From: Planctomycetota bacterium
GTDB lineage: Bacteria > Planctomycetota > Phycisphaerae > Phycisphaerales > SM1A02
Length of the DNA: 64,000 bases
NCBI GenBank assembly: GCA_027618565.1
Contig: JAQCEQ010000008.1
Coordinates: 688 to 64,687, forward strand
Reading direction: 5' to 3'
Every line of letters begins with the position of its first letter. The stretch's first letter is position 1. Made by a program: the position numbers and the translations under genes. Below, one piece after another: positions 1,756-6,557 of this stretch. The notes under the pieces were generated by a model, which saw only the letters and a program-made list of their open reading frames with translations, was not told the DNA's origin and did no database searches.

Positions 1756-2604
1756 TCACTCGCCCGCGATCGTCCCCTCCCACGGGCTGCTCGCCGTGGC
1801 GTAGAGCTTGCGAGGAATCCGACCCGCACGCGCGCCGATATAGCCGGATTCGCAGGCCATTCGCATCGCGTGGGCCATCGCGACTGGGTCTTTCGCGTGC
1901 GCGATGCCGGTGTTGAGCAGCACGCCGTCCGCGCCAAGTTCCATCGCGATCGTGATGTCGCTGGGTGTGCCCACGCCAGCGTCCACGATGACTGGATAGT
2001 CGGCCGAGCCGCCATGCGCAGGATCCTTGAGGAGTTCAAGAATGATTCGAATGGCCGCGGGATTGGCCGTGCCACGCCCCGAGCCGATCGGGCTGCCAGC
2101 GGGCATCACGCTGGTGGCGCCCGCGTCACGAAGTCGAACCGCCATGATGGGATCGTCGCTTGAGTAGCAGAGCACGCTGAATCCGTCGGCGACCAGTTCC
2201 TTGCAGGCTTCCAGCGTGCCCACCGGATCCGGCAGCAGCGTCTTCTTGTCGCCGAGCACTTCAAGCTTCACCCAGCTGGCGCCGGGATTCCCCAGTTGCT
2301 CCAGGAGGTCGCGGCCAAGTCTGGCCACTCGCACCGCGTCGGCGGCCGTGAAGCAACCCGCGGTGTTGGGGAGAATCGTGAGTCGATCCAGCGGGAGTTC
2401 CTCAAGGAGCGACTTCCCCTCCGCGTTCACCAGCCGCTCGCGTCGCACCGCGACCGTCACCGCGTCCGCGCCGCTCGCGTCCAGCGCCCGGCGCATGGTG
2501 GCAAAGTCGGCGTACTTGCCGGTGCCAACGATGAGTCGGCTCCTCAGCGTGAAGGGGCCAATGGAGAGGGCGGGGACGAGTTCGGTGGCGGTCACGGAGG
2601 CCAT
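1756..2604 (-). CDS. thiG: Thiazole synthase ThiG
   Basis: 282 aa, full-length match by eye to ThiG (...RLIVGTGKY...ILPNTAGC...KLEVLGD...[11 protein letters not shown]...[12 protein letters not shown]...GVLLNTGIA...). Confidence 0.95.
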
Positions 2605-2660: not shown

Positions 2661-2885
2661 TCACCCGCCGCCGACGAGCGTCACGATCTCGACTCGCTGT
2701 CCGTCCGCAAGCCGGCGCGTGGCGTGGTCGCGGTGGCGGACGATCTCGCCGTCCACCTCTACCGCGCATGGGCGATCCGCAAGCCCTAGGTGCACGAGCA
2801 GTTCGTGCACGGTGACACGCTCACCGCCCGCCCCGTCCGGGCCCGCGGGAATCTGGCGATCGGTGCCGTTCACTCGCAGGGTCAT
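2661..2885 (-). CDS. thiS: Sulfur-carrier protein ThiS
   Basis: 74 aa, MTLRVNGT...VEIVTLVGGG with the C-terminal GG, directly upstream of thiG. Only the last 74 codons of track ORF 2661..3626 are taken. Confidence 0.85.
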   Translation of the reverse strand: MTLRVNGTDRQIPAGPDGAGGERVTVHELLVHLGLADRPCAVEVDGEIVRHRDHATRRLADGQRVEIVTLVGGG

Positions 2886-2906
2886 CGCACCTATCCTAGA
2901 AGCAGA

Positions 2907-3707
2907 GTGCGCCAACGCCTTCGGAAGTCGATCCTCCAGTTGCTGCCCGTGCTCGCGTGCTTCCTCGCCGCCTGCGGCGACAAGCCCGCGTACGACACCT
3001 CCACGCCCGAGGCGATGCTGGCGTCGCTCCAGCAGGCGATCCAGGAGGGCCACCCCGAGATCATTCCGCAGCTGATCGACCTCCCTGCGCGTGACATCAC
3101 CTTTGCCGACGGCGTGACGGAAGCCAGTGCCATCGGCGAAGTCAAGGGCAAGGCCGGCGACATGCTGGCGCAGCTGTGGCGCATCACGGAGAAGCTCCGC
3201 GCGCGGTATCCCGACGAGTTCGGCGACGAGGCGCAGGGCGCCTTTGACAAGGTGGACGAAATGCTGCCTTTGGCCGCCTACGGCAAGTACACGGCGAAGT
3301 TTCTGGCGGATCCGTTCGGTTTCATTTCGGAGCAGCGGGAGAAACTCACCGCCGAGGACATGGGCGATGGCACCGCCGCACTCCTCTACGAGGACGAGCC
3401 GATCTTTGAGGGTGCCGTCACACTGGTCGAGACCGACGACGGCTGGAAGTTCGCGGTCCCGCTCGACACGATGCGCGGCAGCGAGTACTTCCCCGACACG
3501 CGTGAGGAATGGTCGATCCTCGCCAGCCTGCTCCTCACGATGGAGAACGCGATGATCGACTTCGAGGACGAGCTGGACGCCGGCAAGTTCAAGACGATGC
3601 GCGCCGCCAGCGAGCGCGTGGGCCAAACCGTCGGAGCCAGCGTCATCGTGCAGTCCCTCGTCTACGCCGCGATGAAGCGAGACGACTCCCCGCCGGCGAC
3701 GCCTTGA
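2907..3707 (+). CDS. Hypothetical lipoprotein
   Basis: An in-frame GTG at 2907 gives VRQRLRKSILQLLPVLACFLAACGD (signal peptide plus lipobox LAAC). The remainder is an acidic, protein-like sequence. Its stop TGA (3705-3707) lies inside the first CTTGAAACGGT half-site. Confidence 0.65.
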   Translation: MRQRLRKSILQLLPVLACFLAACGDKPAYDTSTPEAMLASLQQAIQEGHPEIIPQLIDLPARDITFADGVTEASAIGEVKGKAGDMLAQLWRITEKLRARYPDEFGDEAQGAFDKVDEMLPLAAYGKYTAKFLADPFGFISEQREKLTAEDMGDGTAALLYEDEPIFEGAVTLVETDDGWKFAVPLDTMRGSEYFPDTREEWSILASLLLTMENAMIDFEDELDAGKFKTMRAASERVGQTVGASVIVQSLVYAAMKRDDSPPATP

Positions 3708-3776
3708 AACGGTCGAACCCCCGCCGGCGACGCCTTGAAACGGTCGAACCCGCGCCGGCGACGCCTTGAAACGGTC
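3690..3776. repeat. 31-bp tandem repeat x2.8 (CCGCCGGCGACGCCTTGAAACGGTCGAACCC)
   Basis: Units 3690-3720 and 3721-3751 are identical. A partial third unit at 3752-3776 runs into the hairpin loop. Each unit carries CTTGAAACGGT (3703, 3734, 3765) and repeats the last codons and stop of the lipoprotein gene. Confidence 0.95.
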
Positions 3777-3816
3777 AGGATTTGCTGCTTAAGTCACGAT
3801 TCCCACCGTTTCAAGG
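3764..3816. repeat. Hairpin element copy 1 (12-bp stem CCTTGAAACGGT/ACCGTTTCAAGG, 29-nt AT-richer loop)
   Basis: The arms at 3764-3775 and 3805-3816 are perfect reverse complements. The loop is CAGGATTTGCTGCTTAAGTCACGATTCCC. Located between the convergent lipoprotein and DUF559 genes. Confidence 0.9.
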
Positions 3817-3896
3817 GTGAGACGGCGACGCACCGCTCGCGCGCAACCGTTTCAAGGGTGAGACGGCGACGCACCGCTCGCGCGCAACCGTTTCAG
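3805..3896. repeat. 41-bp tandem repeat x2.2 (ACCGTTTCAAGGGTGAGACGGCGACGCACCGCTCGCGCGCA)
   Basis: Units 3805-3845 and 3846-3886 are identical. A degenerate start of a third unit (ACCGTTTCAG) lies at 3887-3896. The repeat duplicates the 3' end and stop codon of the DUF559 gene. Confidence 0.95.
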
Positions 3897-4880
3897 TGTC
3901 GCTTGCACCATGCCAGCCACCGCGCGGGGGTCGTCGGTCAGCGATTTCCAGGTGGCGTGCACCACCGTCCAGCCACCCAGCTGCAGGTCGTTGCGGCGAT
4001 CTCGATCCCGCTCGAACGCGGCATCGCTCGTATGAAAAGCCTTCCCGTCCACTTCCAAGGCCAGCCGGCAATCGGGCCAGGCGAAATCGATCCGTGCCAG
4101 GCGGTGCGAGAACCCCGCCTTCTTGGCCACCGGAACCCGCACGCTGTGGTTGGCGTGCCAGCCCGATCGACCGCCGGGTCGATTCCGCGCGCTGAGGAGT
4201 GCCCGCCGCATGAGCCGTTCCGCCGCTGAGTGGGTGCCATCGCGCAGGTGCCTGAGTGCCTGGCGTTCTGCCGCGTTGGAGCGCCGTCCTTGCCGACCGG
4301 CGGATCGGCCCGCGAGCCGCCGCTGGGCCTCGTCCACGCGAATCCAGCGACGCTGCAAGCAGTGATCCAGGAAGTCCGCGCGGAGGTCCGTGGGAACCAC
4401 CTGCAACGTGTCCAGGAGAGCAGTCAATCGATCCGCAAAGACCAAGTCGCGGCGGTGAATGGCACGCCCGTCGAATTGGCGTCGCAGGACCCTCGCGCCG
4501 GCCACGCTGATGTGTCGATTGACGGACGCGTAGGCCATTGGCGTGATCGCGCAGAATCGAGTGGCCCAGTCGCCATCGCACCCCAGAATCTGCGCCGCCG
4601 CCGCGCCGGTGATGACCGCCCCAGCGCCCAGTCGAAGCGTGAGCGCCTGGGCGTCGGCGCGGGACCGGCGCGTGACGGCGGATGGAATGAGCAGGCATTC
4701 CAGGTGCTTTCGCAGAAACCCTTGGCGTTCCAGCGTCGCCAGTCGGCGGCGCGAGCAGCCAAGCGCCAGTGCTTGTGGGCGTGTGACCACGCCCTGCTGG
4801 ACGCTTGCGAGCGAAGTCAAGTCATTCGTCGCGGCAGGTGTTCGTGATCGCGGAGTGATCGAGCCACGGTAAGGCAGCAA
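3852..4880 (-). CDS. DUF559 (Vsr-like endonuclease fold) protein with AbiEi-like N-terminal wHTH
   Basis: The C-terminus ...IDFAWPDCRLALEVDGKAFHTSDAAFERDRDRRNDLQLGGWTVVHATW is the DUF559 signature. The N-terminus QQGVVTRPQALALGCSRRRLATLERQG is AbiEi_4-like. There is no ATG near the 5' end; TTG at 4880 or TTG at 4820 are the possible starts. Confidence 0.8.
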   Translation of the reverse strand: MLPYRGSITPRSRTPAATNDLTSLASVQQGVVTRPQALALGCSRRRLATLERQGFLRKHLECLLIPSAVTRRSRADAQALTLRLGAGAVITGAAAAQILGCDGDWATRFCAITPMAYASVNRHISVAGARVLRRQFDGRAIHRRDLVFADRLTALLDTLQVVPTDLRADFLDHCLQRRWIRVDEAQRRLAGRSAGRQGRRSNAAERQALRHLRDGTHSAAERLMRRALLSARNRPGGRSGWHANHSVRVPVAKKAGFSHRLARIDFAWPDCRLALEVDGKAFHTSDAAFERDRDRRNDLQLGGWTVVHATWKSLTDDPRAVAGMVQATLKRLRASGASPSHP

Positions 4881-4930
4881 GACCGCGATTCGCCAAAGCG
4901 CAGCGGAAGTTCTTTCGGGTCCCGGTCATG

Positions 4931-5023
4931 CCTTGAAACGGTCGGGATTTGCTGCTTAAGTCACAATTCCCACCGTTTCAAGCCGTGCGGCGTGCGGCAC
5001 AGGGTCGATTCCACCGTTTCAAG
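4931..5023. repeat. Hairpin element copy 2 plus one extra half-site
   Basis: Arms at 4932-4942 and 4972-4982 form an 11-bp stem. The 29-nt loop differs from copy 1 at only 2 positions. An extra ACCGTTTCAAG lies at 5013-5023, 41 bp from the previous one and 4 nt beyond the transporter stop. Confidence 0.9.
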
Positions 5024-5027
5024 CGAC

Positions 5028-6557
5028 TCACCCCCGCAGGAAGACCCAGCTCAGCACCACAAAGACCGGGATCAGCACCAGCATGCTGAATGCCATGTAA
5101 CCGAAGAAGCTGGGCATCCGCACGCCCGACCGCTCCGCAATCGCCTTGACCATGAAGTTTGGCCCGTTGCCGATGTAGGTGCTGGCACCCATAAAGACCG
5201 CGCCCAGCGAGATGGCCGCGAGCAGGTCTCCTCGCACCGCGCCGTCCGTCAGCGGAATCATCGGAATGGAGGCATCGGCCCCCACCCCCGGCCCCAGCGT
5301 TTTCGCCGTTTGGAGGAACACCAGGTAGGTCGGCGCGTTGTCCAGCATGCTGCTCAACACACCGGTCACCCAGAAGAATTTCATTGGTGTGTCCACGCCC
5401 AGCGAGGCTCCCTTCGCGTGAAGGACTTCCAGCGGCACCTGCATCGTGATGAAGATGCCCGAGAAGAGCGCGGCCACTTCCACGATCGGGAACCAGCTGA
5501 ATTCGTTTTCCTCGCGCAGCGATCGAGGCGTGGCCCACATCGCCAGTCCGGCCAGCAGCACCATGAGTCCCTCGCGCAGGTACACAAACGGATACACGTC
5601 CGTCCCGGGGATCAGTCGGCTGGGGTCCAGCAGCGCCACGCACAGGACGATGCCGGCCAGGAATGGCAGGCTCCGCAGCCCCTCCACGCGCAGCGGCTGC
5701 GCCAGCACCACATCGCGCCTGAGGTCCGACTTCGCCTCCCGCTTGTACTCAATCGAGTCCCACACGAAGTAGATCGCGAGCAGCACGCCCGCGGCGAACG
5801 CCCACTCCACCCACAGAGTGGTCGTCCAGAGGAACGGAACGCCCTTGAGGTAGCCCAGGTAGAGCGGGGGATCGCCGATGGGAAGCAGCGTGCCACCGAT
5901 GTTGCTCACCAGGAAGATGAAGAAAACGACCGTGTGGACCAGCCGCCGACGCTCGCTGTTGACCTTGAGCAGGAACCGGATGAGCAGCATGCTGGCCCCG
6001 GTCGTGCCAACGACGCTGGCCATGCCAGTGCCCGCCGCCAGAATGAGCATGTTGGTCCAGGGCGTCGCCCGAAGGTCGCCCTTGATGACGATCCCGCTGG
6101 TCACCGCGAACAGCGACCCCAAGAGCACGATGAACGGGATGAACTCGTCAAGGATTGCGTGCTTGACGGCGCCTCCAGCCGTGGCCAGGGGTGGCCCGTG
6201 GGCTTGGTGAGCCGACCACGCCAAGTACCCAAGCGTCGCCACGGCACACACCATCGCCACCATGAACTTGGATCGATTCTCCTCCCACCAGTGATGCGTG
6301 GCCGGGATCAATGGAAGGACCGCGATGCACAGGAGGAGAATCGCGAACGGTGCCACGCCCAGTCCCCACGCTGCGGGAAGAATGGCCTGGGCGTGCGTGC
6401 CAACCTCGTGCGAACCCTCGTCAACCGGCGCATGGTGCCCCGGTCCGGCCAGTGCCACGCCGAGCGCGACGAGGCACACGGCTGCGGCGCAGAGCGCGAT
6501 GATCGCCTCGATGGAGAGGCGTTGTCGAGAATTATGGTGCGCCACCATGGGGCGCAC
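5028..6557 (-). CDS. IT-superfamily (NhaD/ArsB/CitMHS-like) ion transporter, putative Na+/H+ antiporter
   Basis: 509 aa, polytopic membrane protein. Motifs such as ...LLAAGTGMASVVGTTGASMLLIRF... and ...SSMLDNAPTYLVF... are typical of this family. Start is GTG at 6557 or ATG at 6548. Confidence 0.75.
   Translation of the reverse strand: MRPMVAHHNSRQRLSIEAIIALCAAAVCLVALGVALAGPGHHAPVDEGSHEVGTHAQAILPAAWGLGVAPFAILLLCIAVLPLIPATHHWWEENRSKFMVAMVCAVATLGYLAWSAHQAHGPPLATAGGAVKHAILDEFIPFIVLLGSLFAVTSGIVIKGDLRATPWTNMLILAAGTGMASVVGTTGASMLLIRFLLKVNSERRRLVHTVVFFIFLVSNIGGTLLPIGDPPLYLGYLKGVPFLWTTTLWVEWAFAAGVLLAIYFVWDSIEYKREAKSDLRRDVVLAQPLRVEGLRSLPFLAGIVLCVALLDPSRLIPGTDVYPFVYLREGLMVLLAGLAMWATPRSLREENEFSWFPIVEVAALFSGIFITMQVPLEVLHAKGASLGVDTPMKFFWVTGVLSSMLDNAPTYLVFLQTAKTLGPGVGADASIPMIPLTDGAVRGDLLAAISLGAVFMGASTYIGNGPNFMVKAIAERSGVRMPSFFGYMAFSMLVLIPVFVVLSWVFLRG

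Follow-up and report, generated by a model that had tools for sequence, protein, structure and literature searches.

The stretch of DNA analyzed here (the window; 64,000 nucleotides) contains a predicted nuclease gene that lies between two copies of a hairpin-forming sequence and is framed, in turn, by a lipoprotein-like gene and a convergent transporter gene. The features of this locus are as follows.

2790..3707, plus strand: lipoprotein-like gene, an open reading frame (ORF) with no Pfam match
3683..3775, plus strand: 31-nt tandem array, 2.9 copies, the unit consisting of 19 nt of flank and the left arm CCTTGAAACGGT
3764..3816, plus strand: hairpin A, with a 12-bp outer stem, a bulge, an imperfect 8-bp inner stem, and the conserved loop GCTGCTTAAGTCAC
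3805..3895, plus strand: 41-nt tandem array, 2.2 copies, the unit consisting of the right arm ACCGTTTCAAGG and 29 nt
3852..4880, minus strand: nuclease gene of 342 codons, predicted to encode an AbiEi-like module and a Vsr/DUF559/MTES_1575-type PD-(D/E)xK domain
4931..4982, plus strand: hairpin B, with its loop oriented as in hairpin A, lying upstream of the nuclease gene at a distance of 49 nt from the predicted TTG start
4972..5024, plus strand: right-arm repeat after hairpin B, with arms at 4972 and 5013 at a 41-nt spacing
5028..6557, minus strand: CitMHS_2-family transporter gene (Pfam E-value 6e-146), convergent with the lipoprotein gene and forming the right-hand border of the insertion described below

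Both hairpins are approximately 53 nt long. Hairpin A is laid out as the arm CCTTGAAACGGT, a 29-nt loop, and the arm ACCGTTTCAAGG, and hairpins A and B are direct repeats with 92% identity across 61 nt. An earlier reading made from the sequence alone (the sequence-only reading) had described an element of approximately 52 nt at 3764–3816 and 4931–4982 in the same orientation, with loops differing at two positions; the analysis reproduced both points, the two differences being A/G and G/A. The stem of 11–12 bp given in that reading corresponds to the outer stem, but the complete stem is longer: past a one-base bulge it continues as the imperfect inner stem and leaves a terminal loop of approximately 12 nt. 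The 12-mer arm occurs eight times in the window compared with an expected 0.21 (eight or more occurrences were seen in 0 of 100 shuffles), and the 20-nt loop core occurs twice compared with an expected 0. The predicted folding energies of the hairpins are −28.9 and approximately −40 kcal/mol (z-scores of −3.3 and −2.6, respectively), and a model of the hairpin, R1, scores 82.9 bits for hairpin A and 80.8 bits for hairpin B. Complementarity within the hairpin is 82% and does not exceed 52% once the partners are slid. Base-pair covariation was not significant (the score was reached in 54 of 500 shuffles) because the outer stem hardly varies.

The tandem arrays are built from half-hairpins and overlap the adjoining genes. 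The flank in the 31-nt unit is the final 19 nt of the lipoprotein gene, while the nuclease ORF is overlapped at its 3′ end by the 41-nt array; the TGA stop of this ORF (3852–3854, minus strand) lies inside the right-arm copy at 3846–3857. A small GC hairpin separates the right arms at 4972 and 5013 (the latter spanning 5013–5024), and this repeat ends 3 nt short of the transporter stop. The DUF559 gene had been regarded as the only thing between the two hairpins; it is the sole ORF in this interval, but the interval also contains tandem repeats.

Several familiar types of element were considered and rejected. The 12-nt arms at 41-nt spacing suggested a CRISPR-like array, but the spacers are mutually diverged copies of each other and the arms are therefore part of tandem repeats. 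On inspection, the arms CTTGAAAC and GTTTCAAG fit neither the R″ (RYYYAAC) nor the R′ (GTTRRRY) motif of an integron attC site on either strand, and no integrase was found in the neighborhood of the hairpins. A consensus scan revealed no U-tract or terminator-like site at hairpin A or B; given this result and a loop sequence that is kept across copies, a Rho-independent terminator was dismissed, in line with the earlier view that the element is more than a mere terminator. On inspection, neither hairpin has an obvious G-rich tail of the type seen in BoxC, PIT, and TMECO intrastrand-triplex repeats. The consensus scan gave no promoter either; a promoter-like sequence picked out by eye on the plus strand (TTGAAA-N17-TTAAGT) was set aside, since it is directed away from the nuclease gene and is not conserved among the hairpins of other lineages. 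In an Rfam 15 scan of positions 3500–5200, nothing relevant was detected, the one match being at chance level and within the ORF (snaR-A, E = 0.3).

Empty sites and selective constraint

The locus was compared between the genome of the window (G000), a sister species (G001), a member of the same genus (G002), and further relatives (G003 and L009). The stops of the lipoprotein and transporter genes are approximately 2, 17, and 43 nt apart in G002, G003, and L009, respectively, and neither the nuclease gene nor a hairpin is found there. Since these three relatives lack the gene and the hairpins at the junction, the 1.34-kb block at 3684–5027, which consists of hairpin, nuclease gene, and hairpin, is an inserted unit. 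The comparison of empty sites thus agrees with the sequence-only proposal that the gene and its hairpins form one cassette-like unit. The block also supplies the last seven codons of the lipoprotein gene (DSPPATP) and its TGA stop, which lies inside a copy of the left arm; the orthologues stop earlier, at MDRDRQTTK-stop in G002, MKRGK-stop in G003, and MKRDS-stop in L009. A further relative, L010, was left out as an additional empty site because its gene order differs.

At the same locus in G001, the gene is present together with both hairpins; that is, this relative does not carry the gene without duplicated hairpins. The tandem copy numbers differ from those in the window, with 1 copy in the 31-nt array, 4.3 copies in the 41-nt array, and 4 arms in the right-arm repeat that begins at hairpin B. 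Hairpins and tandem arrays of this kind also interrupt metagenome assemblies, for example at contig ends of G001.

The dN/dS ratio of 0.25 between G000 and G001 (dS of 0.39, compared with 0.43 in a neighboring gene) indicates that the nuclease gene is under purifying selection. Its base composition is not foreign, with a GC3 of 0.755 compared with a genome median of approximately 0.77. Hairpins A and B each differ from their G001 orthologues at 2 of 57 positions (4 of 114 together), while synonymous sites differ by approximately 31%; as judged from this comparison, conservation is far stronger in the flanking hairpins than at synonymous sites. The loops of the 3′ and 5′ copies are under equal constraint. 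In addition, each hairpin has retained its own flank signature since G000 and G001 split, an observation that speaks against hairpins A and B still exchanging sequence.

The last observation bears on the idea that the hairpins are recombination sites at which the gene is flipped or excised by a programmed switch. The palindromic arms would provide homology in both orientations, and a published screen found DUF559 proteins to be enriched 14-fold among the predicted targets of programmed inversion (PMC9881135). However, no recombinase was found near the nuclease gene, the orientation of the gene is identical in G000 and G001, and the preserved flank signatures are not what ongoing exchange would leave. 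We consider a switch of this kind very improbable.

Hairpin brackets in the protein family and solo copies

The protein family is large, comprising 8,091 clusters at 50% identity (E ≤ 1e-3). A private hairpin bracket, accepted when its score exceeded those of all 570 shuffles, was found around 41 of 57 homologues (approximately 71%) from Planctomycetota and Actinomycetota, the other 16 having none. Shifted windows in the same loci reached a bracket score in only 1% of 200 trials, and the association between DUF559 genes and hairpins surmised from the single locus is upheld by this difference. The bracketing repeats are strong hairpins of 45–75 nt, their sequences are lineage-specific, and in 23 of the 41 bracketed homologues the hairpin begins ahead of the stop codon. 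The copies are inverted in about 40% of the bracketed homologues, i.e., about as often as they are direct, and simple target-site duplication therefore does not fit. The genome of G001 encodes nine paralogues, of which approximately seven or eight each have a hairpin pair distinct from the others; hairpin pairs in G001 also bracket unrelated genes.

Among 61 related genomes, matches to the hairpin model R1 and matches to the protein were alike confined to G000 and G001, a co-occurrence that represents one or two phylogenetically independent events. A search of G000 for further copies, as the sequence-only reading had suggested, yielded six solo hairpins in intergenic DNA, at gene ends, which together with the flanking pair make eight copies. 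With so few copies, confined to the two gene-bearing genomes, the hairpin is not a ubiquitous REP-like element. G000 lacks the hairpin subtypes that belong to paralogues present only in G001. A candidate second copy of the nuclease gene in G000 proved to be a weak N-terminal fragment where contig C27 begins, and no hairpin adjoins it. In the relative L020, the flanking pair is present but there are no solo copies. The 75-nt palindrome that flanks the gene of Arthrobacter nanjingensis A33 is found at approximately 30 sites in that genome.

Some solo sites are filled in one genome and empty in another. The site C4:134113 is filled in G000 by a 78-nt insertion with no gene remnant and is empty in G001, the efp site holds a solo hairpin in G000 and is empty in G002, and three further sites are filled in G001 and empty in G000. 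No convincing target-site duplication or defined element ends were detected at the filled/empty pairs; a possible 9-nt duplication at C4:134113 lies within low-complexity GC sequence. Instead of having been mobilized, the solo copies could be what remains of cassettes that were lost.

These distributions also bear on the possibility that the hairpin is an independent REP-like element serving as the target of a homing-type nuclease gene, which would have inserted into an existing solo copy and restored the hairpin on both sides. The copies in the window are direct repeats, solo hairpins at gene ends are possible landing spots for a cassette, and the nuclease fold is closest to that of a homing endonuclease. 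The sequence-only reading had likewise proposed an ancestral junction that carried a hairpin, duplicated when the gene arrived. This proposal is not supported by the three empty sites, none of which has a hairpin, nor by the inverted copies that are frequent in the family. Moreover, the hairpin family is missing from every examined genome without the gene, and a private hairpin type for each paralogue would need a matching prior repeat family each time. Homing into a pre-existing hairpin is thus an improbable account of the locus.

The predicted nuclease and its relation to known systems

The AbiEi-like module, composed of a winged helix-turn-helix (wHTH) and an AbiEi C-domain, occupies residues ~16–202 of the protein, and the nuclease domain occupies residues ~240–335. 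All Pfam matches fall under the gathering thresholds: MTES_1575 (PF18741; 33.8 bits, cut-off 38.2) and DUF559 (PF04480; 18.1 bits, cut-off 20.6) at residues 262–329, and AbiEi_4 (22.3 bits, cut-off 25). PADLOC matched residues 16–202 to AbiEi (6e-6), NCBIfam gave a chance-level match alone, and a sequence search against solved structures gave none. The AF2 model (pLDDT of 91) was compared with solved structures by Foldseek. The closest solved fold to the nuclease domain is the homing endonuclease I-Bth0305I (3r3p; TMt of 0.71–0.79, probability of 1.0), which supports the homing-type affinity suggested earlier; NGO0050 (3hrl; TMt of 0.68) and the nuclease domains of PvuRts1I and AbaSI were also matched. 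The N-terminal ~200 residues matched AbiEi (6y8q) with a probability of 1.0. Across 53 homologues, D265, E276, and G279 never vary, and conservation is at least 90% at D278, H283, D292, and R293; by this conservation, the predicted endonuclease retains the catalytic acidic and His residues of a D ... E-x-D-G ... H arrangement. Searches of the protein by Pfam, PADLOC, and fold revealed no Y1 transposase (RAYT).

AbiEi proteins are autorepressors that bind inverted repeats in their own promoters. The locus might accordingly be a self-contained cassette whose hairpins are only cis-regulatory, with the 5′ copy as an autorepression operator and the 3′ copy as a terminator or insulator. The nuclease would then act elsewhere, for example on phage DNA or T:G mismatches, and the solos would be deletion scars from recombination between the flanking copies. 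The fold match to 6y8q, the 49-nt distance between hairpin B and the start codon downstream of it, and the arm spacings of 31 and 41 nt, which are near whole helical turns, are consistent with this idea, and direct repeats around a gene predict solo scars. A role at T:G mismatches has been proposed for VsrA, a DUF559-domain Vsr-like protein of Caulobacter, and a methylation-linked DNA-damage pathway of Caulobacter includes a DUF559 protein (PMC12907096). However, the cassette model leaves unexplained why the 3′ sequence equals the 5′ sequence in 71% of the family and why the 3′ loop is equally constrained, and no U-tract or terminator-like signature is present. The approximately 30 copies in Arthrobacter would require many past insertions, every one of them later deleted, and solo insertions are short and hold no gene remnant, as at C4:134113. 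Neither an AbiEii toxin partner nor a methyltransferase gene adjoins the nuclease gene. On balance, we regard a purely cis-regulatory role of the hairpins as unlikely.

The closest parallel is found in REP/REPIN-RAYT systems, or REPtrons (Nunvar 2010; Bertels & Rainey 2011, PMC3116915, PMC3337134). In both cases, a palindromic repeat stands on either side of an enzyme gene that is usually present as a single copy; the identical repeat is dispersed in extragenic DNA, its presence tracking that of the enzyme gene (through few independent events here); each enzyme paralogue has a separate repeat family; and the gene is inherited vertically at a fixed locus under purifying selection. The enzymes differ, RAYT being an HUH Y1 tyrosine transposase, whereas the protein described here combines a wHTH/AbiEi-like module with a Vsr-type PD-(D/E)xK nuclease. 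REPINs are present in tens to hundreds of copies and contain a REP doublet, whereas eight copies of a single hairpin are present here. In addition, the stop codon of the ORF lies inside the repeat in the present system.

We consider it probable that the locus represents a nuclease–palindrome unit that resembles REPIN/RAYT but is built on an unrelated enzyme, and that it belongs to a widespread class in which an AbiEi-headed Vsr/DUF559 gene lies between its own lineage-specific palindromes, with solo copies in intergenic DNA. No published description of a partnership between an AbiEi/DUF559 nuclease and a palindrome was found in the literature. For many families of palindromic repeats in bacteria, no partner enzyme is known, and no role is known for the large nuclease family; a gene–palindrome link across the family offers both a testable protein function and a candidate mechanism for the origin, spread, and likeness of such repeats. 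The present locus contributes three clean empty sites, a positive co-occurrence of gene and repeat, and a quantified constraint on the hairpin loop.

More tentatively, we infer that the protein binds, cuts, and mobilizes the hairpin, the filled and empty solo sites being indirect evidence of cleavage and mobilization. In the proposed mechanism, the winged-helix head would recognize its cognate palindrome, likely by contacting TTGAAACGG in the outer stem and TTAAGTCAC in the constrained loop, and the nuclease domain would nick or cut the palindrome or its near vicinity. Repair might then copy, resize, or move the palindrome, mostly to the 3′ ends of genes; on rare occasions the entire unit would be affected. 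The half-hairpin arrays of variable length, with periods of 31 and 41 nt, may have arisen secondarily when slippage or repair took place at the hairpin. It is possible, though doubtful, that AbiEi-headed DUF559 nucleases in general are active partners of their private palindromes, with the head recognizing them, the Vsr-type domain cutting, and repair propagating, homogenizing, and resizing them and thereby producing half-hairpin arrays. If true, this would constitute a second kind of enzyme-dependent repeat system, evolved independently of REPIN/RAYT and present in Planctomycetota and Actinomycetota at least; thousands of DUF559-family clusters, as well as orphan palindromic repeats, would thereby gain a function.

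Each half of the protein also has relatives outside repeat systems. I-Bth0305I is an EDxHD/Vsr-like homing endonuclease (PMC3239194; 'fractured genes', PMC2677866), and the enzymes of this group share with the present protein the conserved acidic and His residues; a further likeness is that the present gene is polymorphic in its presence or absence at a conserved chromosomal site. However, I-Bth0305I is located in a group I intron of a phage, and the target of its homing codes for protein, whereas the gene described here stands by itself in an intergenic junction between palindromes and includes an AbiEi-like DNA-binding module. The N-terminal ~200 residues resemble the AbiEi antitoxin of the type IV AbiE toxin–antitoxin system in fold and, weakly, in sequence. 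In contrast to AbiE, no gene for the AbiEii toxin (a DUF1814 nucleotidyltransferase) adjoins the nuclease gene and no other ORF lies within the insert; here, the AbiEi-like module is instead fused to a nuclease.

The nuclease gene and its flanking repeats

The locus carries a lipoprotein-like gene on the forward strand, hairpin A, an AbiEi-headed DUF559 nuclease gene, hairpin B, and a CitMHS_2 transporter gene on the minus strand. The repeats and the nuclease gene are as follows.

3683-3775, 31-nt tandem unit (left arm with 19 nt of flank), 3 copies
3764-3816, hairpin A, same orientation as hairpin B
3805-3895, 41-nt tandem unit (right arm plus 29 nt), 2.2 copies
3852-4880, minus strand, nuclease ORF, 342 aa
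4931-4982, hairpin B, same orientation as hairpin A

The sequence-only reading had placed two like-oriented hairpins around the gene, and their positions were confirmed, but it overlooked the tandem arrays adjoining each of them. Hairpins A and B are 92% identical over 61 nt, with 2 loop positions unlike, and are strong folds (folding z-scores of -3.3 and -2.6) in which an imperfect 8-bp inner stem is followed by a loop of approximately 12 nt. In the window, there are 8 occurrences of the 12-nt arm (0.21 expected) and 2 of the 20-nt loop core (none expected). One additional right arm lies 41 nt past hairpin B. The TGA of the lipoprotein ORF falls within the first left-arm copy, and that of the nuclease ORF, read on the minus strand, within a right-arm copy.

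Pfam matches of the 342-aa protein were all sub-threshold (AbiEi_4 in the N-terminal part and MTES_1575/DUF559 in the C-terminal part), and its PADLOC AbiEi matches were weak (residues 16-202). An AlphaFold2 model (mean pLDDT 91) was compared by Foldseek: the N-terminal part matched the AbiEi antitoxin (6y8q), while the C-terminal part matched the catalytic domain of the homing endonuclease I-Bth0305I (3r3p; TM 0.71-0.79), the Vsr-like domains of PvuRts1I and AbaSI, and the DUF559 protein NGO0050 (3hrl). An alignment of 53 homologues shows no variation at D265, E276 and G279 and almost none at D278 and H283. The protein therefore joins a DNA-binding AbiEi-like module to a Vsr-type nuclease domain that appears intact. 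An AbiE toxin-antitoxin pair was rejected, since no AbiEii toxin gene was found among the neighbours of the nuclease gene and the module is fused to a nuclease instead. The ATG start of the sister-species orthologue (L011 3986) is ATC in the window genome (4880-4900), where no in-frame start occurs before the TTG at 4880, four codons downstream; therefore, the true start of the window gene is uncertain.

Full-text literature searches found no description of an association between DUF559 genes and hairpins. The nearest statements in print are a proposal that a Caulobacter DUF559 protein acts in mismatch repair (PMC12907096) and one table row that lists DUF559 among predicted inversion targets (PMC9881135). 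That row is the sole support for the hairpins forming an inversion switch, which we regard as very improbable.

Occupied and empty sites

The source genome (G000) is a 2.26-Mb MAG with 96.8% completeness and 66% GC. The same locus is occupied, with both hairpins present, in the sister species G001 (SXOD MAG; 85% amino-acid identity), and the arrays differ in copy number: G001 has 1 left arm versus 3 in G000, 4.3 versus 2.2 of the 41-nt units, and 4 versus 2 right arms after hairpin B. Three relatives have empty sites, with approximately 2 nt (G002, same genus), approximately 17 nt (G003, same family) and 43 nt (L009, from a more distant MAG) between the lipoprotein and transporter stops. Together with the occupied locus of G001, these sites indicate that approximately 1.34 kb (3684-5027) was inserted in the ancestor that G000 and G001 share. 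The inserted block reads arrays, hairpin, gene, hairpin, arrays, and it supplied a 7-codon new tail to the lipoprotein ORF.

The sequence-only reading had assumed that the ancestral junction already bore a hairpin. This is not supported, because neither a model search nor inspection by eye found a hairpin at any of the three empty sites. Insertion of the gene into a pre-existing hairpin is thereby weakened, as it also is by the occurrence of inverted pairs among homologues, and we consider it improbable.

For the nuclease gene, the G000-G001 comparison gives a dN/dS of 0.25 and a dS of 0.39, near that of the neighbouring lipoprotein gene (0.43); the gene was therefore passed down vertically at the locus under purifying selection. 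Each hairpin differs between the two species at only 2 of 57 positions, versus approximately 31% of synonymous sites. Hairpins A and B each retain their own flank signature; therefore, they are conserved individually and are not homogenised with each other. Covariation was uninformative because the outer stem hardly varies.

Hairpin copies across genomes and homologues

Further copies do exist genome-wide. A covariance model built from 9 hairpin copies (R1) gave 8 clear matches in G000: the 2 at the gene, the only one of its type in this genome, and 6 solo copies, all intergenic and inconsistently oriented relative to neighbouring genes. Among 61 related genomes sampled at genus, family and order level, R1 matches and nuclease protein matches were both confined to G000 and G001. 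The latter has 9 nuclease paralogues and approximately 15 hairpin sites, which fall into several loop subtypes, and the subtypes of the G001-only paralogues are absent from G000. The co-occurrence of gene and hairpin is thus clean, but one or two independent evolutionary events lie behind it.

Solo copies turn over. Two sites are common to both species (C61 = L097/L098; C2 = L099), C4:134113 is filled in G000 only, as a 78-nt insertion relative to G001, and three are filled in G001 only (L105, L106 and L107, versus C43, C16 and C4:12300 of G000). A site upstream of efp is filled in G000 and empty in G002. No convincing target-site duplication was found at the filled/empty pairs.

At L097/L098 (G001 C21 end and C74 start), the orthologue of G000 C61:2391-2484, a break in the assembly falls within the hairpin and 41-nt array, a 765-nt segment including the hairpin is present twice, and the right arms after the hairpin number at least 4, versus 2 in G000. 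Such repeats seem to fragment metagenome assemblies. At L102 (G001 C38:10900-17500), a second loop-subtype hairpin occurs at 2033-2089 and 4521-4577, 2.5 kb apart, enclosing genes for a GH5-like glycosidase and a LuxR-type regulator with no DUF559 gene between; the pair could be two neighbouring solos or a hairpin-bounded cargo block.

The protein family comprises 8,091 clusters (50% identity, E <= 1e-3). A profile-based scan gave 80 loci, the majority of them in Planctomycetota and Actinomycetota; all genomes are MAGs, except for a few isolates among these homologue loci. When the stop-codon region of each gene was compared with the 400 nt that precede the gene, a bracketing repeat scored above all 570 shuffles in 41 of 57 genes, and shifted windows in the same loci reached the bracket score in 1% of 200 trials. 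These repeats, 45-75 nt in length, form strong hairpins with lineage-specific sequences, and direct and inverted pairs are about equally numerous. The upstream copy lies approximately 60-190 nt ahead of the aligned start, and in 23 of the 41 genes the downstream copy begins ahead of the stop codon. The arm motif TTGAAA(C/T)GG is common to the planctomycete relatives at 44-46% identity, and about 7-8 of the 9 G001 paralogues have a distinct hairpin pair of their own. A Baikal Phycisphaerales MAG has only the two flanking copies, and the isolate Arthrobacter nanjingensis A33 carries its flanking 75-nt palindrome at approximately 30 sites.

We conclude with good confidence that hairpins and gene are one co-inherited unit, inserted once, in which the hairpin is cognate to the nuclease gene. 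The protein may bind and cut its hairpin, and this activity might in turn drive hairpin spread and array dynamics. The main alternative is that the hairpins are the operator and insulator of a gene cassette and the solos are deletion scars. It accounts for the upstream copy, whereas the identical, equally constrained 3' copy and the Arthrobacter solos are unexplained, and we consider it unlikely. The cognate unit resembles REPIN/RAYT systems in its enzyme gene between cognate palindromes, dispersed solo copies, private repeat family per paralogue and vertical inheritance. However, it combines a wHTH module with a Vsr-type PD-(D/E)xK nuclease, unrelated to the HUH Y1 transposase of RAYTs.

Other elements in the window

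A diversity-generating retroelement lies at 2-800, with an RT fragment (Pfam RVT_1) at 2-550 and, after it, a template-repeat-like stretch rich in AAC/Asn (approximately 578-705). Partial variable-repeat-like matches (72-83%) occur in G000 at C59:1-48, C61:2-90 and C17:52484-52611, two of them at contig ends. Overlapping small ORFs at 961-1221 and 1218-1604 form a putative antitoxin/PIN-toxin pair, judging from their translations alone. The gap between the PIN-like ORF and thiG (1756-2604, minus strand) is occupied by adjoining tandem repeats of 27 nt (3.4 copies, 1609-1700) and 9 nt (5.3 copies, 1696-1743).
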